Positions 1 through 47,285 of a stretch of 47,285 bases of DNA are shown here, in pieces. The notes under the pieces are model-generated. The model was not told the origin of the DNA. It worked only from the letters and a program-made list of their open reading frames with translations, and searched no databases. The DNA comes from Escherichia phage phiKP26. The DNA lies in the sequence record KC579452; one strand, given 5' to 3'. Numbering within the stretch: the first letter of the stretch is position 1; each line of letters starts with the position of its first letter. A program made the position numbers and the translations under genes.

Positions 1-65
1 TCGGTTACGCGTATATAAAATAGCACGATTTGCATAGACAACNAAGCCGAAAAATNNCGGGAGCC

Positions 66-446
66 CAAGTTGAAGTAAAATACGGTGTCGNAGTTAGCAG
101 GATTAGCCGCCATGGCTGGAATGGAGTGGTTGGCATTCGATCTCTATACGAGGCAATAGAAAAGGNCCAGCCATTCGTCGGGCGCGAAGGGATTATGCAT
201 GACCTGACAATTAAANNCATCCCANAAATACAAAAGAGGGGAATNGTTTGCCTCATTGGCGATAAGATTTATGTTCATCCGGCCCTGGTTGAGATGGATA
301 AGGACGACGTGCAAAACTGGTGCAGTCAGTGCCGATCCGACGTGCCACGCTCAAACTACGTGCCACCGCAAACAACAATCCATGGCTATAATGCCGATGA
401 GGTGGAGAAGGCCATACAGTTCTACCGGAAAGCGAAAGCTCTCCCG
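66..446. repeat. Direct repeat copy A (assembly overlap / terminal redundancy); near-identical to 46542-46922
   Basis: Base-by-base match to 46542-46922 at offset 46476; differences cluster at N-containing positions. ORF 30-473 is the repeat image of the C-terminal part of CDS 46389-46961. Confidence 0.85.
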
Positions 447-457
447 AATGGTGAATA

Positions 458-500
458 TAGCACAAATTGCTAAACAATAAATTGGGTAGTCAGCTATGAT
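458..500 (+). promoter_or_regulatory. palindrome/-10 promoter-like element (tagcacaaattgcta-N22-tatgat)
   Basis: Family member; upstream of CDS 531-761. Confidence 0.4.
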
Positions 501-1324: not shown

Positions 1325-1576
1325 ATGAGCAAGTACAACCGACAGATTGTTGGGCTGAATGGTAAAGTAACAACCATTGATGTATATCGGGTTCTGGATG
1401 CATTCCAGGTAACTGACCCCGCAACTCAACACGCCATTAAGAAAATGCTTTGTAGTGGGTTGCGTGGGCACAAGGACTATTTAACAGACCTTGATGAAGC
1501 TATTGAGTCGCTTAATAAGGCTTATGAACTTCGAAAGCAGCGTGATGAGCTTGGATATGTTTATTTCAGTAAATAG
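1325..1576 (+). CDS. hypothetical early protein
   Basis: 83-aa ORF; stop TAA abuts the palindrome element at 1574. Confidence 0.45.
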   Translation: MSKYNRQIVGLNGKVTTIDVYRVLDAFQVTDPATQHAIKKMLCSGLRGHKDYLTDLDEAIESLNKAYELRKQRDELGYVYFSK

Positions 1577-1616
1577 CACAAATTGCTAAACATCCATCGC
1601 AAGGATGCGTTACCAT
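1574..1616 (+). promoter_or_regulatory. palindrome/-10 promoter-like element (weak -10 taccat)
   Basis: tagcacaaattgcta plus 22 nt; leader ...atcgaaattagacgaggaaag before a 42-aa ORF at 1650. Confidence 0.3.
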
Positions 1617-10568: not shown

Positions 10569-10596
10569 TTGTTCCAATTAAAATCTCGTGTATAAT
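10569..10596 (+). promoter_or_regulatory. sigma70-like promoter candidate for the major capsid gene (TTGTTC-N16-TATAAT)
   Basis: Perfect TATAAT at 10591-10596 with a -35-like TTGTTC 16 bp upstream; preceded by an 8-bp-stem hairpin (caatagag...ctctattg). Confidence 0.4.
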
Positions 10597-10634
10597 TGAC
10601 ACGTAAACTCATAAACAAANGGATGCATCTTAAT

Positions 10635-11582
10635 ATGACTATCAAACTTGACGCTTTCGAGCAAGAAAAGATCACTAACCACCTGCGAGCCATGGGCGTT
10701 GATAAGGCTGATGCAGCTGGTATCTGGACCGTGAAGCAGCTCACCGCAAGCCTGAATAAAGCTTACGAAACCGAGTACGACCAGAACTCCGTGGTAAACC
10801 TGTTCCCTGTAAGCAATGAAATTCCTGGCTACGCTAAGTACTTTGAGTATCCGGTATTTGATGGCGTTGGTATTGCTCAGATCGTGGCTGACTACACTGA
10901 TGACCTGCCGCTGGTTGATGCTTTGGCAACTGAACGTCAGGGTAAAGTTTNCCGTTNCGGTAACGCGTTCCTGATTTCCATTGATGAANTTAAAGTTGGT
11001 CAGGCTACCGGTCAGTCTCTGTCTACTCGCAAGCAGTCTCTTGCTTTCGAAGCTCATGACAAGCTGCTTGATAAACTGGTGTGGTCCGGCTCTACTGCTC
11101 ACGGCATCCCGAGTGTGTTCGACTACCCGAACATCAACAACGTTGTTAGCGGTGGTTCATGGTCTCAACCAACTACAGCAGTAAGCGATATTACAAGCCT
11201 GCTGGATATCATTGAGACTTCAACTAATGGTCAGCACCGTGCAACTCACCTGCTTCTGCCTACTACCGCCCGTCGTATTATGCAGAACCTGGTGCCTGGC
11301 ACTTCTGTTAGCTACGGTGAGTTCTTCCGTCAGAACAATAGCGGCGTAACCGTTGAGTTCGTTCAGTACCTGAATGATTACAATGGCACTGGTACCTCTG
11401 CAGCTATCGCTTACGAGAAAGACCCTAACAACATGGCAATCGAGATTCCGGAAGCGACTAACGCACTGCCGGCTCAGCCGCGCGACTTGCACTTCCGTGT
11501 TCCGGTAACTTCTAAAGCAACCGGTTTGATCGTGTTTAGGCCTTTAACTATGGCTGTCATGAAGGGCATTACTTTTGCTTAA
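10635..11582 (+). CDS. major capsid protein
   Basis: ~316 aa (MTIKLDAFEQEK...) with a strong upstream promoter and a terminator immediately downstream; head-module position. The ORF track start at 10596 is probably 5' UTR. Confidence 0.65.
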   Translation: MTIKLDAFEQEKITNHLRAMGVDKADAAGIWTVKQLTASLNKAYETEYDQNSVVNLFPVSNEIPGYAKYFEYPVFDGVGIAQIVADYTDDLPLVDALATERQGKVXRXGNAFLISIDEXKVGQATGQSLSTRKQSLAFEAHDKLLDKLVWSGSTAHGIPSVFDYPNINNVVSGGSWSQPTTAVSDITSLLDIIETSTNGQHRATHLLLPTTARRIMQNLVPGTSVSYGEFFRQNNSGVTVEFVQYLNDYNGTGTSAAIAYEKDPNNMAIEIPEATNALPAQPRDLHFRVPVTSKATGLIVFRPLTMAVMKGITFA

Positions 11583-18515: not shown

Positions 18516-18866
18516 ATGGCATTAGATACTTTTACATGGTGTACCCAAATTCAAGGTGGATCAGCAAACTTTACTAACGCGAATAACGTTAGGGTTGTTA
18601 GCTTTGGCAATGGCTACGAGCAGCGCGGAACCGGAGGTTACAGGACCAATAAGCGCACCTACAACATGACCTACACCAACACCAGCTGGAAGGAAGTGTT
18701 GGACTTCTGCTTTGCTCACATCATCACCCCGTTCGCATGGACAACTCCGCAGGGTGAGCTTAAGCTGTTTGTTGTAGCTCAGGACAGTATCAGCGTCACA
18801 CCAAACACCAAGGACGTGCAGACTGTATCAATGCAGTTTGTAGAAGTTTTCACATCTATGCAGTAA
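18516..18866 (+). CDS. minor tail protein (lambda gpM-like)
   Basis: 116-aa ORF directly after the tape measure gene; M-L-K-I-J order follows. Confidence 0.6.
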   Translation: MALDTFTWCTQIQGGSANFTNANNVRVVSFGNGYEQRGTGGYRTNKRTYNMTYTNTSWKEVLDFCFAHIITPFAWTTPQGELKLFVVAQDSISVTPNTKDVQTVSMQFVEVFTSMQ

Positions 18867-18867
18867 A

Positions 18868-18910
18868 TAGCACTAATTGCTAAACAGAAATACCAAGGAA
18901 GGTTTACAAT
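18868..18910 (+). promoter_or_regulatory. palindrome/-10 promoter-like element (tagcactaattgcta-N22-tacaat) inside the tail module
   Basis: Family member directly upstream of the moron-like ORF 18930-19154. Confidence 0.4.
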
Positions 18911-26010: not shown

Positions 26011-26054
26011 AGGCTTCTGCTGTAGTCTTTAGCAAATCGTGCTATTTTATATAC
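26011..26054 (-). promoter_or_regulatory. palindrome/-10 promoter-like element driving the lipoprotein operon
   Basis: Minus-strand reading: tagcacgatttgcta-N23-tatagt-tactccatcgaaacgaaa, then RBS and ATG at 25960. Confidence 0.45.
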
Positions 26055-26520
26055 GCGTAACCGATGTAACTCGATGTATACAATCTCATCCGCTGAAAAT
26101 TGTATACGCTTTTTACGCGAAGATACGCATTAGTTACATTTATAAATCCTTATATAATAAGGGTTTAGAGTATTATTATTATTATATATATTACTATGTA
26201 TATCTTGTAACTACTCTCTATAGCTATGTTGTTGTGTTTTACTAAAATACTATGTTTGATTTCCTGTTAAGGAGAAAATGCATATATATATAGATAGGGT
26301 GCAAATTTGGTGGATACATTGGTTACAAGGGTTACATTCAGCATTCATGCGGCGTACAGAGCATCAAAGCGTATTTATGTGAGTTTTACAGCTATATACA
26401 AAATAGCACGAATAATCAAAAAAAATGATTCCCGATTAATCACAGGGGAGTAAACAACTNAAGCGGTAATACTTGTGATGNATAAATTGGAACACAATTT
26501 ACAGGAATGAAAACANATCC
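26040..26520. promoter_or_regulatory. AT-rich non-coding switch region A (phased ACGC boxes, (TAT)5 tract, divergent promoters); candidate origin
   Basis: ~480 bp without credible ORFs between divergent operons; ACGC boxes at 26105/26116/26125; tattattattattat at 26171-26185; GGTTACA x2 near 26320; palindrome element at its left edge. Confidence 0.5.
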
Positions 26521-27180
26521 ATGAGCAAAATCGAAAGTGGAGAGATNACGAATATGAGTAATATCGACGTATTAAGAAATATAAGGGAGATGCTAAATGA
26601 TGAAGAGGTATCCCCAGATTTGGGGACACCATGCGTAGTTGATGATAATACAAAATTGTATTCTCAAAATGGAGGATGTGGCCTCAAATTTGAGGGCACC
26701 TACACTAACGAGCAAAACGGTCAGTCTTACCCATGTTTTAACTTGCCATACCGTGAAACTATGATTTTGATGGTCGGTTATAACAGAAAGGTAGCCGCAA
26801 GAATTATTGACCGCTGGCTTCATCTTGAGCGGGAGAATAAATTACTAAAAGACCACATGAAGAAGATGGTTTCACTTGACGAGGTCAAAGTTTACAAGAT
26901 CGAGGCTGCGTCAGCAAAAGCCGCGCAGCACAGAGCTGAGGATAACTATTACGCGATTGAGAAGTTCATGTTTAAGAGCATGGATAAGTGTGGAAATCCT
27001 GCGGAACTTGATGAGCAATACTTCGATGTTAAGTTCGAGTCAAATCGTTACCATGACTCTCAAGAGGTGGTTTACAAATATCAGGCTCAGCTTGAGGTTG
27101 CCTGCGAAAAGTTAAAGGCTAAAGATGAGCTTATTGCTAATCTAGTTGATAAGAATAGCGAGATTCTTAAGTTGAAATAA
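26521..27180 (+). CDS. hypothetical protein with coiled-coil C-terminus (possible phage regulatory / antirepressor-like protein)
   Basis: 219 aa; first gene transcribed rightward from the switch region; functional call is a weak impression only. Confidence 0.35.
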   Translation: MSKIESGEXTNMSNIDVLRNIREMLNDEEVSPDLGTPCVVDDNTKLYSQNGGCGLKFEGTYTNEQNGQSYPCFNLPYRETMILMVGYNRKVAARIIDRWLHLERENKLLKDHMKKMVSLDEVKVYKIEAASAKAAQHRAEDNYYAIEKFMFKSMDKCGNPAELDEQYFDVKFESNRYHDSQEVVYKYQAQLEVACEKLKAKDELIANLVDKNSEILKLK

Positions 27181-27451: not shown

Positions 27452-28420
27452 ATGAGCTTCAAGGTTTACACTAGCGACGAGTTAACCAACGAAGCCTACC
27501 ACAAGGAGTCAGACCATGTGTCTGGCTCTGGTCTGGCTCACATCTTCTCAACTTGCCCCGCTGCTTATAAGTTTGCAGAGCATGATGATAGCAATAAGGC
27601 TTTAAAGTTCGGTACATTAGCCCACACGGTTATTCTTGAAAACTCTGTATTCGATGCGACTTACTATCGCCAGCCAGCGCAAGAAGAGTTTGATGATCTG
27701 ATTACTAGCAAGACTGCTTTGGCAACTCGGTTGAAGTCGATGGGTATTGCTGGAACATCTGGTAAGGATTATCCAGAATTAATGGAGATTCTGGCGCTGA
27801 GCGGTGAATCACTTAACGTATGGTGGGATATTCAGCGCTCTAACGAGGTTAAAGCGAACGGTCGCGAGATTGTATCAGCTAAAGACTTTGACACAGTACA
27901 TGCGATGCGAGAGGTGCTGTGTGGCATTCCTGCATACAATGCGATAGTGAACAGTAAAACCGCTCAGCGAGAGTTATCAATCTTCGGTGAGATTAACGAG
28001 TGCGGCGTTAAGGTTCGTCTTGACCATGTCGATGTCGTTGATGATGTAGTTTATATCCGTGACTACAAGACGACTAGCGACGCATCTCCATCTGGATTTG
28101 GGAGATTGGCCTTCAAGCATGGTTACTTGCTAAAAATGGCGCTTCAGCATGATTTGTTTGTTCGCGCCTTTAATGAGAAGCGTCGAGTTGTTGTTCAGCT
28201 TCTTTGCCAGGAAANGAAAAGCCCATTCCTTCCAATGTGCTACACGATAACAAAAGAGCACTTAAAGGTTGGTAGATTGCAATACATGAGCGCCCTATCC
28301 ACATACAAGCAATGCAAGAAACTTGATATTTGGCCTGGTTACGGATTTGGCGAAACAGAGATGGAACTGCAAGTTCCTGAGTATGAGATGAAGAAGTACG
28401 AAGATAGCACGAATAGCTAA
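27452..28420 (+). CDS. PD-(D/E)xK family exonuclease (recombination exonuclease)
   Basis: 322 aa; D...VVDDVVYIRDYKTT motif characteristic of PD-(D/E)xK nucleases; immediately upstream of Erf. Confidence 0.6.
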   Translation: MSFKVYTSDELTNEAYHKESDHVSGSGLAHIFSTCPAAYKFAEHDDSNKALKFGTLAHTVILENSVFDATYYRQPAQEEFDDLITSKTALATRLKSMGIAGTSGKDYPELMEILALSGESLNVWWDIQRSNEVKANGREIVSAKDFDTVHAMREVLCGIPAYNAIVNSKTAQRELSIFGEINECGVKVRLDHVDVVDDVVYIRDYKTTSDASPSGFGRLAFKHGYLLKMALQHDLFVRAFNEKRRVVVQLLCQEXKSPFLPMCYTITKEHLKVGRLQYMSALSTYKQCKKLDIWPGYGFGETEMELQVPEYEMKKYEDSTNS

Positions 28421-28447
28421 AACGGTATTAAATTGATGGGGTATAGT
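28405..28447 (+). promoter_or_regulatory. palindrome/-10 promoter-like element (imperfect palindrome) upstream of erf
   Basis: tagcacgaatagcta-N22-tatagt-tacctcatcgacaacaaagagag; overlaps the exonuclease stop codon. Confidence 0.4.
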
Positions 28448-28476
28448 TACCTCATCGACAACAAAGAGAGATAGAA

Positions 28477-33350: not shown

Positions 33351-33402
33351 TTTNATTTAATCCAATAAAAAGGTTGTACCGATTATGGCACAACCTTAAT
33401 TT

Positions 33403-33876
33403 TTACTCTTTAGCTTTTCGTGCTTCTTCTCTTTCTTTCTTAACCTTTCGCCATGATTTACGCTGCGGCTTGGTTGCTAACTCAGCTTCTGTAACAACTC
33501 GAAGCATCTGACGCTTCTTGCATCGCAGTGTTAGAGGCTTGCCGTTACCGTCGAACTGTAAATCAGGTCGGCAGAATGTAGCCCTGAACCCCTCGCCAGT
33601 TCGCTTATATCGATTATGCGCAAGCTGTGCGCCGCGAGCTGAAATCATTCCCCGCTTACACCATTCTTCTACAGCCTGGCGCGTAACCTTTAGCTGCTTA
33701 GCTAGATTGGCCTTGCTGCCGTAGAAGTCCAATACAATCTCAAGGCGCGCCCTTAATCCCGCTCTCACTTCATCCTTTAGTACATAGTAACCTGATGGAC
33801 GCTTACGCGGCTTCTTGTCTTCTGTGCGAATTGTTCCGTTGTTACCATTAAGAGTACGCTTGTCAATTGAATCCAT
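33403..33876 (-). CDS. Cro/YdaS-like HTH DNA-binding protein with basic N- and C-terminal tails
   Basis: 157 aa; LAKQLKVTRQAVEEWCKRGMI...CRPDL matches the YdaS/Cro-type HTH pattern; divergent from the helicase across an intergenic region holding the palindrome element. Confidence 0.55.
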   Translation of the reverse strand: MDSIDKRTLNGNNGTIRTEDKKPRKRPSGYYVLKDEVRAGLRARLEIVLDFYGSKANLAKQLKVTRQAVEEWCKRGMISARGAQLAHNRYKRTGEGFRATFCRPDLQFDGNGKPLTLRCKKRQMLRVVTEAELATKPQRKSWRKVKKEREEARKAKE

Positions 33877-33889
33877 TTTCTCACCTCAA

Positions 33890-33932
33890 TAGCACTTTTT
33901 GTTAAACATTGGTTTATATGGCTGTTATTATA
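33890..33932 (+). promoter_or_regulatory. palindrome element in the divergent HTH/helicase intergenic region
   Basis: tagcactttttgtta followed by an AT-rich -10-like tract and leader ...caatcgaacgaaca before the helicase ATG at 33969; the HTH gene starts 14 nt to the left on the other strand. Confidence 0.4.
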
Positions 33933-33968: not shown

Positions 33969-35912
33969 ATGGAAAACCGATTGAAAACAATACAAAAACA
34001 GATTGAAGAATTGGGCGAAGATAAGATTAAAGAGATTCAAACTAAATTCACCTCTTCTAACTGTATGGTTCCGTATAGCTATCAGTGTGTTATGTACAAT
34101 GAGATTGCAAAGCGCATTAGTCGCTATGAGCATCCATTTATCGCAATGGCTTCAGTTTCTGCTGGTAAGACTCTGGTTTTTGGTATGGTTGCTAAGCGTT
34201 GCTCTGAGCTTGGCTTGCCTATGCTTGTTCTTGCTCGTCAGGCAGAGCTGGTTAGCCAGAATGCTTCTGAGATTTCTGATTACGGGGTTCCTAACTCCAT
34301 TTATTGCTCTGGGCTTGGAATAAANTCATCTTATTTCCCTGTGGTGGTTGGCTCTGAGGGCACAGTAGTTGGCGGGCTTAAGAAGTCACTTGGCGATTTC
34401 TGTCCTGCGGTAGTTGCTATTGATGAGTGTCACCATATTGATGACCAGGACATAGCGGAGGCAATTGATAACAATGAGACTGCGCAACAGGCATCAGATA
34501 AGGGGCGTAGCCAGTATACGGTCATCATCCTGACTTTAATGGAGCGCTGCCGTGCTAAGTATGGCAAGAATCTTCGTATCTTTGGACTGACTGGTTCTCC
34601 TTTCCGTGGAACTACGCCAATAGTTGTTGAAANCAAAANGGAGTTGGGATTTTGGCGTGAGACGGTCACAAATATCGATACAAACTACCTGGTAGAGTTC
34701 GGTTCCGTGGTTCCGACAAACTTTGGTGCTACTGATGGCGTTGGTTACGACCTGTCAGAGTTTGATGCATCATCTGAAGATGGTGTTCAGGATTACACTA
34801 AAGCCCAGCTTGAAGCCATGGATAAAAAGATTCAGGCATCTGGAACAATGACAGCGGAGATAATGAAGAAAGTATGGCTTGCCGCGAAAGACAGGAATGG
34901 AGTTCTGGTAACATGCGCAGGTGAGCGCCATTGCCACGAAGCCGCAAGTTACCTTCCTGAAGGTGAAAAGTTCTGCATTATAACTGGAAAGACTGGCGAG
35001 AAGCAGCGCAAGGAGTTGCTTGATAAGTGCTTTAGCGGGGAGATTAAATATTGCTTTCAGGTTCAGGCGCTAACCACTGGCGTAAATGTGCCTACATGGG
35101 ATACAAGCGTTATTCTGCGTAAGATCGGTAGCCTTACGCTCCTGGTTCAGCTACTTGGTCGAGGAATGCGTAAGCTTAAGAAGCTCCATGAAGATAAAGG
35201 AATGGTAAAGAATGACCATTTGGTACTGGACTTCGCAGGAACGATGGACTCTATGGCATCATTGTACTTCAATCCAATTCTTGAGCAGGCTCAATATCAG
35301 CTACGAAAGAGTAATGGCAAGGAGACTAAGCAGTGTCCAGTATGCGGAACAGAGAACAGCTTCTTTGCTCGACGTTGCATGCATATTGATGAGAATAATA
35401 ATCGCTGCGAATATTTCTGGGTTAGTCGCACATGTGAAGACCAGAAAGACCCACGAACCGGAAAGGTTATCGTTAAAGGCTGTGGAGTTCAGAATGACGT
35501 TGCAGCTAAGATTTGTAGGGGTTGCGATTGCACTTTGCTTGATCCAAATCTCAACTTAAGCGGCAAACATTACCGCAAGAACGACTGGTTTGATGTTGTT
35601 GACTTTAAGGTTGGGCTAACAAAGAACCAATCAGGAATCATCTACAACTACATCCTTGATGATGGCATGGGTGGGACATTCAAAGCTCATGAGGTTTTCT
35701 TTGTAGAGTCTGGCCATCGAGTATGTAAAACGCTCTGGTTGAACAATGGAATTAAAGGTCACGTAGTCGACATGAACGCTAAGCGATATATGGCTGCATA
35801 TCGCAATGCTCGCAAGATTATGGAGTATGCGCAGTACATCCATGCCCCTAAGAGGGTAACTCACCGCAAGACCGCTAAAGGTGGCGATAATATTGCTAAT
35901 AAGGAGTTCTAA
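33969..35912 (+). CDS. SF2 DEAD/DEAH-box helicase with C-terminal zinc ribbon
   Basis: Walker A SAGKTLV, DECHH box, C-terminal CPVCG...CxxC cluster; the track start at 33909 is probably leader, ATG at 33969 follows the RBS. Confidence 0.75.
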   Translation: MENRLKTIQKQIEELGEDKIKEIQTKFTSSNCMVPYSYQCVMYNEIAKRISRYEHPFIAMASVSAGKTLVFGMVAKRCSELGLPMLVLARQAELVSQNASEISDYGVPNSIYCSGLGIXSSYFPVVVGSEGTVVGGLKKSLGDFCPAVVAIDECHHIDDQDIAEAIDNNETAQQASDKGRSQYTVIILTLMERCRAKYGKNLRIFGLTGSPFRGTTPIVVEXKXELGFWRETVTNIDTNYLVEFGSVVPTNFGATDGVGYDLSEFDASSEDGVQDYTKAQLEAMDKKIQASGTMTAEIMKKVWLAAKDRNGVLVTCAGERHCHEAASYLPEGEKFCIITGKTGEKQRKELLDKCFSGEIKYCFQVQALTTGVNVPTWDTSVILRKIGSLTLLVQLLGRGMRKLKKLHEDKGMVKNDHLVLDFAGTMDSMASLYFNPILEQAQYQLRKSNGKETKQCPVCGTENSFFARRCMHIDENNNRCEYFWVSRTCEDQKDPRTGKVIVKGCGVQNDVAAKICRGCDCTLLDPNLNLSGKHYRKNDWFDVVDFKVGLTKNQSGIIYNYILDDGMGGTFKAHEVFFVESGHRVCKTLWLNNGIKGHVVDMNAKRYMAAYRNARKIMEYAQYIHAPKRVTHRKTAKGGDNIANKEF

Positions 35913-36301
35913 TGGTTAAGGTTTTTCACGACAAAACAAGCACGGACAAGGCTAAAGAGGTTGTTCACCAAATAAATTCAATAGCTTGGGTTCGCCACAA
36001 CCATCCAGAGATATTTGCTTTTCACGTGAAGAATGAAGGTCTCAAGTCTATCGGCACAGCAATGAAGGACAAGCAGGAGGGAGTAATTAAGGGTGTATCA
36101 GATATTCTACTGATTGGACCAAATGGCTTTGCCGCAATAGAGCTTAAGCGAGCAATAAAATCAGATAGCAAGGTTTCAAAGGAGCAAAAGGAGTTCCTGG
36201 AAAAGGTATCAGAAACAGGAGGTTACGCAGCAATCTGTTATGGGTTTGAAATGTTTAAGTTGGCAATTACAGATTATCTATCAAATAGCACGAATTGCTA
36301 A
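35912..36301 (+). CDS. VRR-NUC domain nuclease
   Basis: 129 aa; ...SDILLIGPNGFAAIELKR... resembles the PD-(D/E)xK VRR-NUC core; stop codon lies inside the palindrome element. Confidence 0.55.
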   Translation: MVKVFHDKTSTDKAKEVVHQINSIAWVRHNHPEIFAFHVKNEGLKSIGTAMKDKQEGVIKGVSDILLIGPNGFAAIELKRAIKSDSKVSKEQKEFLEKVSETGGYAAICYGFEMFKLAITDYLSNSTNC

Positions 36302-36328
36302 AGAGATTTCGCAAGGATGCGATATAGT
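36286..36328 (+). promoter_or_regulatory. palindrome/-10 promoter-like element (best consensus copy)
   Basis: tagcacgaattgcta-N22-tatagt-tacttcatcgaaacgaagagag, then ATG at 36360. Confidence 0.45.
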
Positions 36329-36554: not shown

Positions 36555-36772
36555 TGAAATTAACCTTTGATAAGCAATGGGAACTCTTTCAGGCAATGGT
36601 GGCGCAGGAGTTGAGTAAAGCTGGATATAAAAATGATGTTTGGGATTTAGCTTGGTGTCTTGATTATAGTTTCGAAGAGGATTATCTGAACACTGATATC
36701 GAAACATGGCGCGACCGAATGATTGCTGATATCGAAGAAATGAAGAAAGATTGCCCGGAGGATTTTTCATGA
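36554..36772 (+). CDS. hypothetical protein
   Basis: 72-aa ORF overlapping its neighbours by ATGA. Confidence 0.4.
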   Translation: MKLTFDKQWELFQAMVAQELSKAGYKNDVWDLAWCLDYSFEEDYLNTDIETWRDRMIADIEEMKKDCPEDFS

Positions 36773-36969
36773 TTACTGCGACTTGCGTAATGACGAACGG
36801 CTCATTCACCCTGCTCAATGAGTATGAATTCAAACTTGACCCGATTAATGACCAGGTTGAAATAGTTAGCGATGACGGATTTGCATGGAAGTTACATAAT
36901 GAATTTGATGGGTACTACGGGTGTAATGATGCGAAAGGTAAGCATGTAAGTTTTCTTGTTTATGAGTAA
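36769..36969 (+). CDS. hypothetical protein
   Basis: 66 aa from the ATG at 36769; stop followed by a palindrome element. Confidence 0.4.
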   Translation: MITATCVMTNGSFTLLNEYEFKLDPINDQVEIVSDDGFAWKLHNEFDGYYGCNDAKGKHVSFLVYE

Positions 36970-36970
36970 A

Positions 36971-37013
36971 TAGCACTTTTNGTTAAAACTAAANTACAAG
37001 GATGGATTATATT
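36971..37013 (+). promoter_or_regulatory. palindrome/-10 promoter-like element
   Basis: tagcacttttNgtta-N22-tatatt; upstream of the small ORF at 37043. Confidence 0.4.
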
Positions 37014-37165: not shown

Positions 37166-37405
37166 ATGATAGTTGAAACCGGACGCGCCGCTGTATGGGC
37201 GCATTGTGGAGAGGCGGGATTGCAGGATGACATCAAGATGATAGGTAAATACTTTGATATTGATGACATATCTGTAGTTTTCAATGGGAAGTTTAGTTAT
37301 ATGAACCAGCGGCCACGCAAGTATGTAAGAGTTCCAGCAACGCCTAGCCTCGCAATGTATCGTGAGGAAGGTAAGAAGATATTTAAGAAAGGTGCGAAGA
37401 AATGA
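37166..37405 (+). CDS. hypothetical protein
   Basis: 79 aa from the ATG at 37166; a 41-aa ORF (37043-37168) precedes it. Confidence 0.35.
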   Translation: MIVETGRAAVWAHCGEAGLQDDIKMIGKYFDIDDISVVFNGKFSYMNQRPRKYVRVPATPSLAMYREEGKKIFKKGAKK

Positions 37406-37659
37406 ATTTACCTGGTCTGGATTTTGATGAGAGTAAGTATCAGGTTGTGTTTTTTGGTGAGAAGCCTTATCGGAAGATTCCTTTCTCTGAGTGGATTCCT
37501 CCGGACTACCTCGATGTACTGGTGCAAATTGAGATTGGTAAGGCTGAGTTGATGTACTACTCACCTGGCTGCAATATGATGATGCCTAGTGAGTATTCTC
37601 CAGCAATTGCTGCGCTTGAAACTGAGTTTCTTGATTACTGGCTAAAAGANGTTAAATAG
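37402..37659 (+). CDS. hypothetical protein
   Basis: 85-aa ORF; ATGA overlap upstream; stop at a palindrome element. Confidence 0.4.
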   Translation: MNLPGLDFDESKYQVVFFGEKPYRKIPFSEWIPPDYLDVLVQIEIGKAELMYYSPGCNMMMPSEYSPAIAALETEFLDYWLKXVK

Positions 37660-37699
37660 CACTTTTNGTTAAAACACATCGCCATGGATGGCGTATAGT
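37657..37699 (+). promoter_or_regulatory. palindrome/-10 promoter-like element
   Basis: tagcacttttNgtta-N22-tatagt-gtgttcatcgaaacgagag; upstream of a 22-aa hydrophobic ORF and the phosphoesterase gene. Confidence 0.4.
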
Positions 37700-37810: not shown

Positions 37811-38947
37811 ATGTCTATAGCTAAAATCACCAACGAAGAGTTAAAGCAAGAACTGGCTAACGGTATGACTAACAAGGCAATCGCAGAGAAGTACGGTATG
37901 AATATTCGTAACGTAGAGCTGCGTCGCAGCAAGTTGGCTAAGGCTGGGGATGGTCACGGTCGCGATGTGAGTAACCTAATTCCTCAGGGCTACATGGTTA
38001 AAGGTGTATCTAGCCTTGTTGATAATGATGGCAATGTGAAGTTGCAATGGGTTAAGTCCTCTATTGATGCAGAGAAGCTTGAGGAGATGATGAATCAAGC
38101 GCGAGAGGCATTCTCTAGCGAGCTACCAAANGAAAAAGCAGTTAAATCTGAAGGTCTGAATTTTGATGAAGATACTTTAGCTATGTATCCAGTATTTGAC
38201 CTTCACATTGGCGCAATGGCCCACAAGCATGAGTGCGGAGAAAACTACGACACAGCAACGGCAGAGAAAGTAATGAACGATTATTTTGACTACGCCGTAC
38301 AGAAATCTCCAAATTCAAAGAATGCTGTACTAGTGCTAGGAGGTGATCTGCTTCATTATGATTCTTTGGAAGCCAAAACTCCAGCCAGTGGTCACATCCT
38401 GGACAGTGACAGTCGCTACGCCAAGATTGTTTATGTTTGCATTCGAGCGGTTCGCCGCGCAATTCGAAACATGCTTAGCAAACATGAAAACGTAGAGGTT
38501 AAAGTTATATCTGGTAATCATGATGAAAGTGGTATGGTTTGGTTGCGGGCTGCGCTTGCTGCATTTTATGAGGAAGAGCCACGCGTTAGTATTGATGTTA
38601 GTCCCGCGGCAATGATGGTAACTAAGTTTGGTTCTACAATGCTTGGTTTCACTCACGGGCATCAAATGCGTAAAGCTGATACTCGCCTTTCGGTTATGGC
38701 TACTGACTGGCGACGTGACTTTGGTTTAAGTGATTATGTATACACCCACTCAGGCCACTGGCATTCACAGAAGATTACAGAGACAAATCTTGGTATTGAT
38801 GAGGTTCATGGTCAGCTTGGTTCACCAGATGCATATAGTGCGAATGGCGGGTGGCGCTCACAAAGGCAGGCTGCGGTAATCATATATCATAAAGAGTTTG
38901 GTGAGGTTGGTCGTTTTATCTGTCGCCCAGAAATGTTTAATAANTAG
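37811..38947 (+). CDS. calcineurin-like metallophosphoesterase with N-terminal HTH-like domain
   Basis: 378 aa; metallophosphatase motifs in order (DLHIG, GGDLLHYD, GNHDE, GHQ, HSGHWH); N-terminal ~50 aa HTH-like. Confidence 0.65.
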   Translation: MSIAKITNEELKQELANGMTNKAIAEKYGMNIRNVELRRSKLAKAGDGHGRDVSNLIPQGYMVKGVSSLVDNDGNVKLQWVKSSIDAEKLEEMMNQAREAFSSELPXEKAVKSEGLNFDEDTLAMYPVFDLHIGAMAHKHECGENYDTATAEKVMNDYFDYAVQKSPNSKNAVLVLGGDLLHYDSLEAKTPASGHILDSDSRYAKIVYVCIRAVRRAIRNMLSKHENVEVKVISGNHDESGMVWLRAALAAFYEEEPRVSIDVSPAAMMVTKFGSTMLGFTHGHQMRKADTRLSVMATDWRRDFGLSDYVYTHSGHWHSQKITETNLGIDEVHGQLGSPDAYSANGGWRSQRQAAVIIYHKEFGEVGRFICRPEMFNX

Positions 38948-39022
38948 CACAAATAGTCAAGAAACTACCAGAAAAAGCAGATGGTGGCAATTCAAACAAA
39001 TGAAAAAGCTAGATGAATNNGA

Positions 39023-39214
39023 ATGACTTGCGGAAATATTGAGATGAATTGGTTCAAGAAAGAAATCAAATGGAAAGAAATGTTAAGCATAAAGAGGAAG
39101 GTGGGGATGGGGATAACAGGAGTTATTNATTATAGTGAGTGTTTCAACGACGCGGTATTGGCAAGGANGAAAGCTGAATCTGAATACTCATTTCATGAAA
39201 ATCACGGAAANTAG
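39023..39214 (+). CDS. hypothetical protein
   Basis: 63-aa ORF; Ns within. Confidence 0.3.
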   Translation: MTCGNIEMNWFKKEIKWKEMLSIKRKVGMGITGVIXYSECFNDAVLARXKAESEYSFHENHGX

Positions 39215-39254
39215 CACGAATTGCTAAAACACAAATCAAAAGATGGGGTATATT
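39212..39254 (+). promoter_or_regulatory. palindrome/-10 promoter-like element
   Basis: tagcacgaattgcta-N22-tatatt-tactccatcaaa...; upstream of CDS 39288-39473. Confidence 0.4.
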
Positions 39255-39287
39255 TACTCCATCAAANCAAANCGAGAGGATACAAAG

Positions 39288-43241: not shown

Positions 43242-43285
43242 AATATATCAATTTTTGTTGTTAAGGTCTTTAGCAAAAAGTGCCA
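43242..43285 (-). promoter_or_regulatory. palindrome/-10 promoter-like element (minus strand)
   Basis: Minus reading: tggcactttttgcta-N23-tatatt-ctcttcatcgaaacgaaa, then a 59-aa ORF starting near 43200. Confidence 0.4.
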
Positions 43286-43439
43286 TTAAAGACCAACCAG
43301 ACATTTGCCAACTACAACAGCGATTGCGCCCATGAAGCCAAAGAANCCAAACTTAATTACTTGTTCCATTACCGCATCAACTGCTTTAGAGATGTTTTTC
43401 ATTTTGTTCACCTTAGTGTTTGTCTTCTTGATGGAAACA

Positions 43440-43483
43440 AATATACCCGCCGAAGCGGGTAGTGTCATTAGCAAAAAGTGCTA
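43440..43483 (-). promoter_or_regulatory. palindrome/-10 promoter-like element with embedded GC hairpin (minus strand)
   Basis: Minus reading: tagcactttttgcta, spacer containing cccgc-ttcg-gcggg, then tatatt; small membrane ORF downstream. Confidence 0.4.
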
Positions 43484-43678
43484 TTAATTAAAACCTTTCG
43501 CCAGATGATAGCTTATTACTAGGCATTTTATCTATGAAAGTTTCAAGCAACCATTTTCTAGTAATGAAATCAACCACGCAAAAATAGCCTCTATCTTTGC
43601 AGTATCTGTACTTAGTGCCGTGTTGTATAGACTTGCAATAAATTGAATCTTTTGTTATGTAAATTCTTACTGTCTCAT

Positions 43679-44032
43679 TCATTTGTATTGGCTCTCGAAT
43701 TTATAAGTTCCGCAAACAGTTGTAAATCCAACATCTTCAGAGCGAATCAGCGTCCATGAGTCACCATCTTCATCAAATATTTTACCAGCGTTCTGTCCAA
43801 GAGATGCGGTCATTTCTACCTGATAGCGACGACCTTGCTTGAATGACTTTGATACTCCTGATTTATGGTTAACAAATGTGACATAAAGAGTCTTAGTCTT
43901 GATGTAACGCCCCCGCTCAGTGAGATTTTGCCATTTACCATGAATCTTGATTTGCTCAATACCATCTTTAACGCGAGCTTTAAACAGATTGTTATCTGAG
44001 CTGATCCAGTTTTTAGTGATAGTGGTAGCCAT
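43679..44032 (-). CDS. hypothetical protein
   Basis: 117-aa ORF in the minus-strand small-gene island. Confidence 0.4.
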   Translation of the reverse strand: MATTITKNWISSDNNLFKARVKDGIEQIKIHGKWQNLTERGRYIKTKTLYVTFVNHKSGVSKSFKQGRRYQVEMTASLGQNAGKIFDEDGDSWTLIRSEDVGFTTVCGTYKFESQYK

Positions 44033-44394: not shown

Positions 44395-44437
44395 AATATA
44401 CAATAAAAGCCCCGAAGGGCTTTAGCAATTCGTGCTA
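44395..44437 (-). promoter_or_regulatory. palindrome/-10 promoter-like element with embedded terminator hairpin (minus strand)
   Basis: Minus reading: tagcacgaattgcta, spacer aaagccc-ttcg-gggcttt, then tatatt-catctcatcgaaacgaaa; upstream of CDS 44058-44360. Confidence 0.45.
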
Positions 44438-44587
44438 TTNCTTTGCTGCTTTTGCAATTGCCTTCTGGACGATGTTGAAGCTCTCAATCAAATCTTCTTT
44501 GAAGTAGTCACCAACAGGCCAACCCTTACCGCTGTACTTGGCTATGGTTTCTAGATCGTAATAGTTCAAGTCAGATGGCTTTAGCAT

Positions 44588-45228: not shown

Positions 45229-45272
45229 ACTATAGCCTTGCCATCCCCATTTGTCTTTAGCAAAAAGTGCTA
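45229..45272 (-). promoter_or_regulatory. palindrome/-10 promoter-like element (minus strand), first promoter of the leftward operon from region B
   Basis: Minus reading: tagcactttttgcta-N23-tatagt-aaactcatcaacaacgaggag, then ATG at 45201. Confidence 0.45.
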
Positions 45273-45289
45273 TTCGTCAGATTTATGGA

Positions 45290-45870
45290 TTGTTGCAGGC
45301 ATTGCGATGATTAGCATGACTATTACACATAAAGCAATATTTCATCGATTGCAATGATTTTCTGGACTGTTGCGAATTTATCAATGATTGATGGATTGAT
45401 GGAATGAAGTGAGGGTTGTATCAACTAGTTGGTTGGTTTTAGCTTTCACAAGGAGCTTTCCTTTATGTACGCGTTATGGCTTGTTCAACCGTGTAGAGAA
45501 ATTGCCATATTTACGCCATCCACGCCAGTTTACGCGCTGGTTACAAANTAAATCCCTTATATAACAACCATTTAGATTTATTATTATTATTATTATTATA
45601 TATGTTATTCCGTAACCATGATTATCTGAGATATTGGTGATATTTTTTGATATTGCGCGGCGCATAAAGATTTAGATAAAGAGATAGGGATGCAAGCGGG
45701 GTGGCGAAAATGGCTTAACATACCATAACGGCAATAACAGCCTTGATACGACTAGCGTCAGCATGTAACAATTTAGCATAACGTGCGATTACCGAGTTGA
45801 ACGTGTAAATAACGCTTGCGACATTCACCAATCATGGTAAGATGCTCTCACACCAAACGAGAGGAGTAGT
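45290..45870. promoter_or_regulatory. AT-rich non-coding switch region B, paralogous to 26040-26520 (phased ACGC boxes, (TTA)6 tract); candidate origin
   Basis: ACGC boxes at 45513/45522/45532; ttattattattattattat at 45578-45596 with flanks similar to 26141-26215; tandem gattgatgg x2 near 45390; no credible ORF. Confidence 0.5.
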
Positions 45871-45873
45871 AAA

Positions 45874-46389
45874 ATGAGTAATACAATTCGTGAAGCAAAC
45901 CCGACACTTGGCGACCTGGTGCGGCACCTTGTTAAGATGGCTCTTAATTCAGAGGATGGAAGCGTAACAGTTCCCGTTAAGTTGCTTTACAAGAATCTTT
46001 ACGGAGAAATTGATAACGACTATGTAGCAGCTGACTTTAGACCTGGCGGCAAATATTCACTTCCAAAGCTTAAGGCTTCCTATGTTTCAAATACAGCCAG
46101 CAGAATGCAGGAAGTTAAAGACGCAGATAAGCGCGCAAGGTTCTCTTGTGGAGAGATGGAGTATAATGGTGATGAGCATTATTGCGTAAAAATCACAATG
46201 GTCAACGGTGCTGTTAAGAATGGAACCCGAGCTAAGACAAACAGTCAATTAGAGGAGAAAGCGGTAAGCGAGTTTAAAGCTAGGCTACTTAAGCTTTCCC
46301 CNAGCGTAGCAGGAATGAGTGGAGATGAACTGAAGGGTGCGGTAGCTATGATTAACGCATATCAGGAAATGATTAAGGAGACTAAATAA
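45874..46389 (+). CDS. hypothetical protein
   Basis: 171-aa ORF with a strong RBS (gagaggag); first rightward gene after region B. Confidence 0.5.
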   Translation: MSNTIREANPTLGDLVRHLVKMALNSEDGSVTVPVKLLYKNLYGEIDNDYVAADFRPGGKYSLPKLKASYVSNTASRMQEVKDADKRARFSCGEMEYNGDEHYCVKITMVNGAVKNGTRAKTNSQLEEKAVSEFKARLLKLSXSVAGMSGDELKGAVAMINAYQEMIKETK

Positions 46390-46961
46390 TGTTTGATTTC
46401 AACGAGGATAAGTTAACTGATGACCAGGTGATGGAAGTCGCCAGGCAAGATAACCTGCCGCCACTTCGTGTGGCAATCAGTACTAATGGATACCGCCAAT
46501 CATTCAATTTCTGGCCCAGCGCCGAAGAGATGCTGTGCGTCAAGTTGAGCTACAAATACGGTGTCGTAGTTAGCAGGATTAGCCGCCATGGCTGGAATGG
46601 AGTGGTTGGCATTCGATCTCTATACGAGGCAATNCGAAATGTCCAGCCATTCGTCGGGCGCGAAGGGATTATGCATGACCTGACAATTAACATCATCCCA
46701 GAACTACAAGAGNCGGGAATTGTTNGCCTCATTGGCGATAAGATTTATGTTCATCCGGCCCTGGTTGAGATGGATAAGGACGACGTGCAAAACTGGTGCA
46801 GTCAGTGCCGATCCGACGTGCCACGCTCAAACTACGTGCCACCGCAAACAACAATCCATGGCTATAATGCCGATGAGGTGGAGAAGGCCATACAGTTCTA
46901 CCGGAAAGCGAAAGCTCTCCGAAAGGGGAAATTTAAAAAAAATGAACCATCTATCAATTAA
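46389..46961 (+). CDS. short paralogue of the 529-aa P-loop protein, lacking the ATPase core; 3' end runs into low-quality sequence
   Basis: N-terminus MFDFNEDKLTDDQVMEVARQDNLPPLRVAISTNGYRQS matches the N-terminus of 41400-42989; a later block (VVGIRSLYEA...LIGDKIYVHPAL) matches its C-terminus. In the cleaner repeat copy the ORF ends at 473. Confidence 0.5.
   Translation: MFDFNEDKLTDDQVMEVARQDNLPPLRVAISTNGYRQSFNFWPSAEEMLCVKLSYKYGVVVSRISRHGWNGVVGIRSLYEAXRNVQPFVGREGIMHDLTINIIPELQEXGIVXLIGDKIYVHPALVEMDKDDVQNWCSQCRSDVPRSNYVPPQTTIHGYNADEVEKAIQFYRKAKALRKGKFKKNEPSIN
46542..46922. repeat. Direct repeat copy B (matches 66-446)
   Basis: Same as copy A; after 46922 the sequence degrades instead of continuing as 447 onward. 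Confidence 0.85.
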
Positions 46962-47285
46962 AAAAAATAAGTNANNAACCCCCACCACCAAAAAAACCAN
47001 NAACACANNNANAAATAACAACAAATAACAACCAAAAACCCANNNAAAAACANCAACACAACANCACNAANAANNCNCCACANAANAAAGGACAAATAAC
47101 ANNAGGATGCGAAGANACGNAGNNNNGCNNNNAGTANNCTNCGCAANNNNNGACAGGCNNNGGTGGACCCTCGTCACCGTAACACTTACAGGTACGCACG
47201 GACGGTAACGGTCGGACGAGGCAGGGTACGTACGGTCGGTAGGGACGGCGGGTACCTAGGTAGGGGTACTTTCGGAACGGTAACG
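46923..47285. other. Low-quality / artefactual sequence tail (N-rich, A/C homopolymer-rich)
   Basis: Dense Ns, poly-A and poly-C runs, no coherent reading frame; the ORFs predicted here are full of X. Confidence 0.8.

Follow-up and report, generated by a model that had tools for sequence, protein, structure and literature searches.

In the DNA of Escherichia phage phiKP26 (sequence record KC579452; 47,285 nucleotides (nt), all of which is called the window here), genes end in or directly against copies of a short intergenic motif that begins TAGCAC and carries a TAG and a TAA in different frames. A preliminary description of this DNA had seen in the motif a palindrome that doubles as the stop codon of the upstream gene, gives several proteins a similar C-terminal tail and delimits shuffled gene cassettes. 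Our results suggest, with a probability of about 0.72, that the motif is the upstream element of a promoter cassette lacking a -35 box, and that its overlap with stop codons is a by-product of compaction around the TAG and TAA built into it.

The motif corresponds by sequence to the published 21-nt repeat of the T1-like phages, consensus aaATAGCACnnnTTGnTAAAA. The function of this repeat is listed as open for these phages, a group of classic model viruses that are also notorious as contaminants of laboratories. Three points can now be put to the test: that the repeat keeps a fixed distance to a -10-like element, that genes upstream are capped by it whatever their frame, and that it marks the exact points at which modules switch between genomes. 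The observation is real and general. The overlap of the repeat with stops would be a by-product of a tightly packed genome of swappable modules and not a new protein feature.

Upstream genes end in or against the motif

Offsets are counted throughout from the T of TAGCAC, taken as 0, and copies are named by the coordinate of that base (Table 1). The motif carries TAG at offset 0 and TAA at +13, which places them in different frames, as had been described. The open reading frame (ORF) of the exonuclease at 27452..28420, a PD-(D/E)XK/DUF3799 protein, reads gat-AGC-ACG-AAT-AGC-TAA through the motif and ends in ...YEDSTNS, and the similar S-T-N-C/S tails noticed at 458, 28405 and 36286 do arise from the motif serving as the upstream stop through its TAA at +13. 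Elsewhere the stop is the motif's own TAG (1574, 37657, 39212, 44437 on the minus strand and a degenerate copy at 38945) or a TAA lying at -3 (11583 and, on the minus strand, 43285), at -4 (18868, 36971) or at -7 (43483, minus strand). The copies at 26044 and 45272, both on the minus strand, and at 33890 have no co-directional upstream gene. The genes at 1574, 18868, 36971 and 37657 had all been listed as stopping at a TAA just before TAGCAC; this is borne out at 18868 and 36971, where the TAA lies at -4, while those at 1574 and 37657 use the motif's own TAG.

Escherichia phage C119 (Rogunavirus), which is 99% identical to the window by megablast and has its own independent RefSeq annotation, was taken as the reference for the same genome. 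Its stop tally is identical to that of the window, so that no copy rests on an N. The annotated RefSeq stop lies at -4, -3, 0 or +13 in 11 of 12 co-directional copies, and the motif TAG accounts for 5 of the 8 TAG stops in the C119 genome. The same pattern is found family-wide, in T1, TLS, e4/1c and phiEB49. The window has 149 Ns and junk ends, and the preliminary description had named, as what would refute it, a shift of the reading frames on correction of Ns and homopolymer errors, such that the stops no longer coincide with the motif. Such an assembly artefact is ruled out by the comparison with C119 and deserves almost no credence: C119 has the same copies and stops, its RefSeq coding sequences end at the same points, and T1, TLS, e4/1c, phiEB49 and the IMG/VR contigs are alike.

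A tabulation of the stop position for every copy, as the preliminary description had advised, was extended to 294 distinct cassettes from five reference genomes and IMG/VR contigs. The stop is TAG at 0 in 128 of these and TAA at +13 in 37; the further stops are TAA at -4 (24 cassettes), -3 (15) and -1 (7). Upstream ORFs end in or against the motif because it has a built-in TAG and TAA, its 5' flank is rich in A and there are no spare bases. There is indeed no slack in the genome, since where the motif is absent terminators start about 7 to 13 nt after the stops. Stop overlap alone is thus an ordinary consequence of compaction.

The proposed explanation is that, in a compact, headful-packaged genome, nothing would separate genes from cassettes, so that upstream ORFs would come to end in or against the motif in whichever frame they reach it. 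An ORF arriving in frame 0 would gain nothing, one in frame 1 would gain S-T-(N/F)-C, and one in frame 2 would stop 1 nt before the motif, where the conserved AAA of the 5' flank would need only one extra T to give TAA. Frame 1 is the only frame that leaves a trace in the protein, namely four codons of the form AGC-AC(N)-(N)(N)T-TG(C/T). The suggestion that regulatory DNA is partly translated holds as far as translation goes, with 13 to 16 nt of the motif translated in some genes; the regulatory role of that DNA is a predicted one.

Identity and conservation of the repeat

The paper on phage TLS (PMC11447400, PHAGE 2024; authors including Kropinski and Misra) describes 18 intergenic 21-nt repeats, with the consensus given above, that lie about 76 nt 5' of start codons, are co-oriented with transcription and sort into GAA, TTT and AAA subgroups. 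Its relevant passages state that comparable repeats are present in T1, Rtp and Rogue1, the last a close relative of the window, and list the function of the repeat as an open question, with a stoperator, an enhancer site or an UP element as suggestions. Term searches of the same paper returned no mention of stop codon, termination codon or overlap, and its passages on the repeat describe neither a -10 at a constant 22 nt further downstream nor mosaic junctions that coincide with the repeat. There is no mention of the element in the papers on Rogue1, AHP24, SU57 and KanT1.

The window contains 15 copies with at most one mismatch to ATAGCACnnnTTGnTAA, and a position matrix built from 86 distinct copies in the five reference genomes gives back the published consensus; in extended form it reads aaATAGCAC-N3-TTG[C/T]TAAA. 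Every copy is co-oriented with its downstream gene, the ATG of which lies at +70 to +84, and the good copies in the window are all intergenic and run in the same direction as the flanking genes. The dyad TAGCA-N5-TGCTA has 14 matches in the window at one mismatch or fewer (2.2 +/- 1.5 in shuffles), and the 16-mer motif has 12 at three mismatches or fewer (0.63 expected).

Both stop codons are almost invariant among the 86 copies. For the TAG, T0 is present in 82, A1 in 85 and G2 in 86; for the TAA, T13 is present in 82 and A14 and A15 in all 86. In the 5' flank A is found at -1 in 83 copies, at -2 in 69 and at -3 in 52, and T at -4 in 39. The TAG and TAA are the outer bases of the two arms of the dyad and are also kept in copies that have no co-directional upstream gene, such as those at 26044 and 33890. 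Because they are invariant where there is no upstream gene and form the outer bases of the arms, they are, as judged from the aligned copies, conserved for the function of the motif and not for stopping translation.

A promoter-like cassette downstream of the motif

The motif (0 to +15) forms the 5' edge of an intergenic cassette of about 75 nt, in which it is followed by a 22-nt spacer and a -10-like hexamer. Among the 86 copies this TAnnnT hexamer begins at +37 in 51 cases and at +38 in another 16, any other offset being used by at most 7, and its forms at these two positions are TATAGT, TATATT, TATAAT and CATAAT. G is present at +35, the -14 position of an extended -10, in 58 of 86 copies; start-site-like C at +48 and A at +49 are present in 43 and 62, respectively. 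An A-rich leader, a Shine-Dalgarno sequence and the ATG follow. With the -10 placed at +37, the motif spans -49 to -34 with its centre at -42. There is no -35 hexamer at 16 to 18 nt from the -10, positions -35 to -30 reading AAAnnn. The TTG(C/T)TA of the motif was considered as a normal -35 and ruled out, as its spacer to the -10 is 22 to 23 nt in every copy. Over C119 18000-37900, consensus sigma-70 promoters are depleted (32, against 44.8 +/- 6.9 in shuffles) and terminator-like hairpins are about twice as frequent as expected (29, against 15.5 +/- 3.9).

The resemblance of T(A/G)GCAC-N-TTGC to TGGCAC-N5-TTGC, together with one copy that does read TGGCAC (43285), raised the idea of a sigma-54 (-24/-12) promoter. 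The resemblance is superficial and this idea is ruled out: the spacing from G to G is 9 and not 11, 85 of the 86 copies have TAG in place of the invariant GG, and sigma-54 promoters are not characterised by a -10-like hexamer at a fixed 22 nt downstream.

Between +14 and +61 the predicted folding is more stable than that of shuffled sequence (mean z of -2.8, with z below -1.5 in 65% of 79 cassettes from the five genomes). The hairpins take two forms, a GC tetraloop terminator in the spacer (44437, 43483, 11583) and a stem that encloses the -10 (39212, 28405, 458 and most copies in T1 and TLS). Their arms are copy specific, for example at window 39240-39263, 28435-28455 and 44395-44421. No covariation in a fixed register was found in the downstream hairpin, the pairing sums lying near both 59 and 73 to 76; the position of the -10 is fixed and the register of the hairpin is not.

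It has also to be considered whether the element acts as RNA, through a weak UAGCA-N5-UGCUA hairpin at the stop followed by a variable second hairpin. It might then be a processing, pausing or antitermination signal (nut- or put-like, or an RNase site), with TAnnnT as a conserved loop. The motif is always co-oriented with transcription, C or T at position 12 opposite the invariant G2 preserves G-C or G-U pairing, and the arms of the stable hairpins downstream vary from copy to copy, all of which would fit such a role. However, the motif hairpin has a predicted energy of only -3.7 kcal/mol (-1.3 in the TTGTTA variant), and TAnnnT stays at +37 or +38 whether the second hairpin encloses it or lies upstream. 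Copies also occur in divergent regions with no upstream transcription unit, the G at -14 and the C-A at the predicted start are features of promoters, and a scan of C119 against Rfam at the gathering score gave a match for the tRNA only and no known RNA family for the cassette. We regard an RNA-level element as improbable. A hairpin or terminator formed by the motif itself was ruled out, being too weak and followed by a run of A.

From this anatomy we infer that the motif is an upstream promoter element, most likely the site of an activator and less likely a direct contact for RNA polymerase; an activator bound there would serve a promoter without a -35. A candidate for the binding protein, and nothing more than a candidate, is the Cro-like helix-turn-helix regulator encoded at 33403..33876. 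It is conserved in T1, TLS and the Rogunavirinae, and a copy of the motif lies in its own upstream gap in every genome examined. Its Pfam matches fall below the curated cut-off, it also matches PHROG 2856, and a search with its sequence against the PDB gave no match.

Several points weigh against this explanation. The motif is not a clean palindrome: positions 5 (C) and 9 (T) are both conserved, the flanks are A-rich on the same strand, and position 12 is either C or T opposite an invariant G2. An asymmetric reader or a G-U-tolerant hairpin would fit such a motif better than a symmetric dimer, and the imperfect dyad with its asymmetric flanks weakens a simple symmetric-dimer model. The cassette precedes many early-region genes, a difficulty for an activator encoded by the phage, unless the few consensus promoters allow it to be made first. 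The stops of the 294 cassettes are strongly biased to frame 0 (128, versus 37 and about 30 in the other frames). Pure neutrality does not predict this excess, and mild selection is suggested, perhaps against extended C termini or against the entry of ribosomes into the cassette. Finally, in the literature on T1-like phages we found no transcript 5' ends, reporter data or binding data.

The shared C-terminal tail

It had been asked whether the S-T-N-C/S tail travels with the element. The tail does not follow the genes that carry it, but comes and goes with the reading frame among orthologues. The VRR-NUC protein ends in ...NSTNC in the Rogunavirinae (window, C119, e4/1c and phiEB49), and its gene stops at TAG 0 in T1 and TLS. 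The exonuclease ends in ...[D/N]STNS in the Rogunavirinae and at TAA -4 in TLS and T1; the motif at the end of this gene is partly degenerate in e4/1c and phiEB49 (CAGCAC...TAGCTAA). A gp59-like protein ends in ...NGEYSTNC here and in ...LNGE in e4/1c, the difference being a 2-nt indel just 5' of the motif. The regulator gene ends in ...DSTDC in TLS and ...NSIFS in T1, while in the Rogunavirinae a whole relic motif is translated in the third frame (...EARKAKE).

Among the 294 cassettes, the tails that end at +13 are STNC (18), STFC (13), SIFC (2) and one each of STDC, STNS, STKC and RTNW. Their sequence tracks the subgroup of the motif, GAA and AAA giving N and TTT giving F. That unrelated proteins carry the same four residues, with S-T-(N/F/D/K)-C-type tails coming from 37 of 294 cassettes, might suggest a C-terminal tag for degradation, localisation or interaction of several early proteins. 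This is very unlikely, since orthologues in T1, TLS and e4/1c are without the tail, a 2-nt indel switches it on or off, it lies outside the Pfam domains (which finish at residue 297 of 322 and residue 112 of 129) and its sequence simply follows the motif subgroup. Because T1, TLS and e4/1c have orthologues of the same genes without it, the tail is, on this comparison, a frame-dependent, dispensable by-product with no function of its own. For annotation, the motif is to be seen as the source of many TAG stops and S-T-N/F-C protein ends in these phages, and the shared tails should not be taken as a protein motif.

Homology junctions at the motif

The preliminary description took the translated tails as an argument for modular shuffling of cassettes delimited by the motif. 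The overlap of tail and stop is itself no argument for this; the role of the motif as a delimiter of modules is supported independently, by indels and by mosaic junctions between Drexlerviridae genomes, which gather at the two edges of the motif. In C119, the window and phiEB49 the major head gene is followed by the motif, a terminator and an HNH gene, and the insertion starts exactly at the motif; e4/1c, T1 and TLS are without both motif and HNH gene. After the minor tail gene (motif 18868), C119 and the window carry ATAGCAC...small gene...AGTAA, a module containing gp16 that phiEB49 is without and whose boundaries share an AGTAAA microhomology. A slot bounded by the degenerate copy at 38945 and the cassette at 39212 (window 38961-39150, compared with C119 31739-32200) is filled by a different gene in each of the four phages C119, the window, e4/1c and Rogue1. 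In C119 it is occupied by a complete HNH endonuclease gene and in e4/1c and Rogue1 by unrelated small genes, while the window has a 63-residue ORF sharing only its 3' end with the C119 endonuclease gene.

Segments of C119 that are not covered by e4/1c or phiEB49 often end a few nt from the 5' edge of the motif or at the 3' end of the cassette. In junction-level Fisher tests of breakpoint enrichment, the genome-wide comparison with e4/1c gave the sole significant result (p=0.008); within the non-structural region the enrichment was not significant (p=0.085 and 0.36). We also compared 390 motif-anchored cassette windows in pairs by ungapped extension; the pairs are not independent events, and gene ends are favoured breakpoints under selection alone. 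Of the 53 pairs that share at least 150 nt on the downstream but not the upstream side, 30 lose homology within less than 10 nt of the motif, and 25 of these 30, in 19 distinct contexts, are truly unalignable upstream. Conversely, 82 pairs share the upstream but not the downstream side; homology stops at +17 to +29 in 26 of them and at the start codon in only 10. Truly unalignable sequence follows in 18 of these 26, in 17 contexts. The N3 subgroup is kept in 15 of the 18 upstream-sharing pairs versus 13 of the 25 downstream-sharing pairs, against a background rate of 0.30, which hints at crossovers inside the motif. The junction positions are observed. From them it appears that homology between related phages switches at the motif and that cassette-plus-gene modules are gained, lost and exchanged there; as to mechanism, we infer recombination in which the same short shared sequence would serve as the switch point.

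These junctions bear on a different emphasis, in which the motif is selected as a portable adaptor that combines a stop in every frame with a promoter, so that cassette-plus-gene modules could go in behind any gene and no fusion proteins would arise. This is compatible with a promoter cassette and differs from our explanation on whether the stops are selected. It would account for stops in all three frames arising nearly wholly from conserved positions, for modules that start exactly at the motif (the HNH and gp16 modules and the slot with four genes in four phages), and for the break at the motif in the 25 downstream-sharing pairs with unrelated upstream genes and the converse in 18 pairs. 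The promoter-early stem-loop (PeSL) cassettes of T4-type phages likewise begin at an upstream stop codon. However, the TAG and TAA are equally conserved without an upstream gene and belong to the outer bases of the arms, so that a stop function is not needed to explain them. AT-rich upstream promoter regions often hold stops by composition, the enrichment at motif junctions is lost within the non-structural region, and selection on function would by itself also place breaks at gene ends. Selection for an adaptor is a minority explanation, to which we give perhaps one chance in four in its favour. Equally doubtful is the related proposal that the ATAGCAC-N3-TTGNTAAA repeat may be a recombination linker of mobile promoter/terminator cassettes, a Drexlerviridae (siphovirus) counterpart of the PeSLs, in which crossovers inside the motif would carry promoter-plus-gene modules from phage to phage and the three-frame stop would be selected for docking behind any gene without fusion proteins.

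Copies in the window and state of the assembly

By megablast the closest group to the window is the T1-like phages (Drexlerviridae, Rogunavirus), with Rogue1, AHP42, AKS96 and JK06 at 95 to 98% identity. The window is a raw assembly and shows artefacts at both ends. Bases 1-42 repeat 26022-26064 in inverted form; bases 66-455 match 46541-46930 at 94% identity, which is a circular-permutation overlap that contains read errors; and the last ~350 nt (about 46930-47285) are N-rich junk with no match in C119. The ORF closed by the copy at 458 is a second copy of the 3' end of the gene that starts at 46389 (C119 gp59). The sole tRNA, a tRNA-Arg (anticodon CCT) at 2921-2996, matches the tRNA reported for related phages.

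Table 1. Motif copies and associated features in the window
Feature	Coordinates	Strand	Context
Copy TAGCACGAATAGCTAA, one mismatch	28405..28420	+	Last four codons and stop (TAA 28418-28420) of RecE-like exonuclease gene 27452..28420
-10-like TATAGT, 3' of 28405 copy	28442-28447	+	
Erf-like gene start, 3' of 28405 copy	28477	+	
Copy, perfect match	36286..36301	+	Last four codons and stop of VRR-NUC gene 35912..36301 (...YLSNSTNC)
-10-like TATAGT of 36286 copy	36323-36328	+	
Copy	458..473	+	Closes ORF 30..473 (...NGEYSTNC)
Copy	1574..1589	+	Own TAG (1574-1576) is stop of ORF 1325..1576 (C119 gp64)
Copy	37657..37672	+	Own TAG (37657-37659) is stop of ORF 37402..37659 (C119 gp39)
Copy	39212..39227	+	TAG is stop of ORF 39023..39214; right border of variable gene slot
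Degenerate copy TAGCACAAATAGTCAA	38945..38960	+	TAG is stop of DNA-repair exonuclease gene 37811..38947; left border of variable slot
Copy	18868..18883	+	Upstream minor tail gene 18516..18866 stops at TAA -4
Copy	36971..36986	+	Upstream ORF 36751..36969 stops at TAA -4
Variant copy TAGCACTTTTTGACAA	11583..11598	+	Abuts TAA (-3) of major head gene 10596..11582; then terminator and HNH-type gene
Copy	33890..33905	+	Divergent gap between Cro-like regulator gene (33403..33876, -) and helicase gene; no co-directional upstream gene
Copy	26029..26044	-	Divergent intergenic region; no upstream gene
Variant copy (TGGCAC...)	43270..43285	-	Upstream ORF 43286..43474 stops at TAA -3
Copy	43468..43483	-	Upstream ORF 43488..43682 stops at TAA -7; GC hairpin terminator in spacer
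Copy	44422..44437	-	TAG is stop of ORF 44435..44587; GC hairpin terminator in spacer
Copy	45257..45272	-	Edge of large divergent intergenic region; no annotated upstream gene
Relic copy AAGCACGAAAAGCTAA	33410..33425	-	Fully translated in third frame at end of regulator protein (...EARKAKE); CATAAT at +38
Degenerate copy TAGCACGAATAATCAA	26404..26419	+	5' of anti-repressor-like gene 26521..27180

Some copies have further features around them. Those at 26029-26053 and 26395-26419 face outward and share a 17-nt inverted repeat, TATAyAAAATAGCACGA, an arrangement that suggests paired divergent promoters. The terminator after the regulator gene (window 33378-33405, minus strand) reads AAGGTTGTGCCATAATCGGTACAACCTT TTTAT and holds a -10-like CATAAT in its loop, at +38 from the relic motif within the 3' end of the gene; the layout in TLS and T1 is alike. 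In the RefSeq annotation of C119 the start of gp22 is a TTG inside the motif (TTGCTA; C119 18248, window 26035). The more likely start is an ATG with a Shine-Dalgarno sequence at +84 (about window 25960), and start codons annotated within the motif, at its TTG, are suspect. A similar AT-rich block, CCTTATATAA ... TTATTATTATTATTATATATAT, is present in both large divergent intergenic regions (C119 18248-18720 and 38269-38942, about window 26040-26520 and 45280-45870). This block may serve as an origin of replication or as an immediate-early control region.

Comparison with known systems

The closest parallel is with the PeSL cassettes known from the T4-type phages phi1 and RB49 (Arbiol et al. 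2010, PMC2839356). Both systems consist of a small intergenic cassette that starts at an upstream stop codon in an AT-rich stretch (PMC2839356), the stops in the window lying between -7 and +13 of the motif in all co-directional copies. Both combine a promoter or promoter-like part with a stem-loop of variable position, between the boxes or overlapping them (PMC2839356); in the T1-like cassette the hairpins lie in the spacer or around the -10 and have the stability given above. Both flank small accessory genes and mark the boundaries of insertions, deletions and replacements (PMC2839356), here at three loci and in the 25 and 18 mosaic pairs, with the Fisher test not significant in the non-structural region. 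The systems differ in that PeSLs have consensus -35 and -10 boxes, whereas the T1-like cassette has no -35 and instead a conserved 16- to 21-nt element 22 nt upstream. A sigma-70 pair of boxes at 16 to 18 nt is not what we find: the -10-like hexamer is at +37 or +38 in 78% of copies and the only -35-like sequence, TTGCTA, lies 22 nt upstream of it. The hosts of the cassettes also differ, T4-type phages in one case and siphoviruses of the Drexlerviridae in the other. Promoter activity, terminator activity and mini-circles have been demonstrated for PeSLs (PMC2839356), while the T1-like cassette is known here from its sequence.

A second parallel is with stoperators, as described for mycobacteriophage L5 (Brown et al. 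1997, cited in PMC11447400). According to the passages of the TLS paper that deal with them, these too are numerous short sites of set orientation, placed in short intergenic spaces and running in the direction of transcription (PMC11447400). They differ in being repressor sites of a temperate phage that block elongation, whereas the T1-like group is described there as virulent (PMC11447400). The T1-like motif differs further in being locked to a -10-like element at a fixed distance.

The spacing itself is close to that of some host promoters. In class II activator-dependent promoters of E. coli, the activator site (for example of CRP or FNR) is centred near -41.5, and extended -10 promoters carry TGn-TATAAT. 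The T1-like cassette resembles both in its predicted dyad centre at -42, the lack of a -35, the frequent G at -14 and half-sites one helical turn apart; the centre at -42 holds only if TAnnnT at +37 is the -10 and A at +49 is the start. It differs from class II promoters in that its dyad is imperfect with asymmetric flanks, its start is a predicted one and its activator is only a candidate.

Much of this picture is already known: the element itself, as the TLS repeat, and the layout of upstream stop, promoter, variable stem-loop and module exchange, as the PeSL. What seems not to have been described before for the T1-like phages is the capping of upstream genes by stops in three frames, the fixed spacing to the -10 and the clustering of junctions at the repeat.

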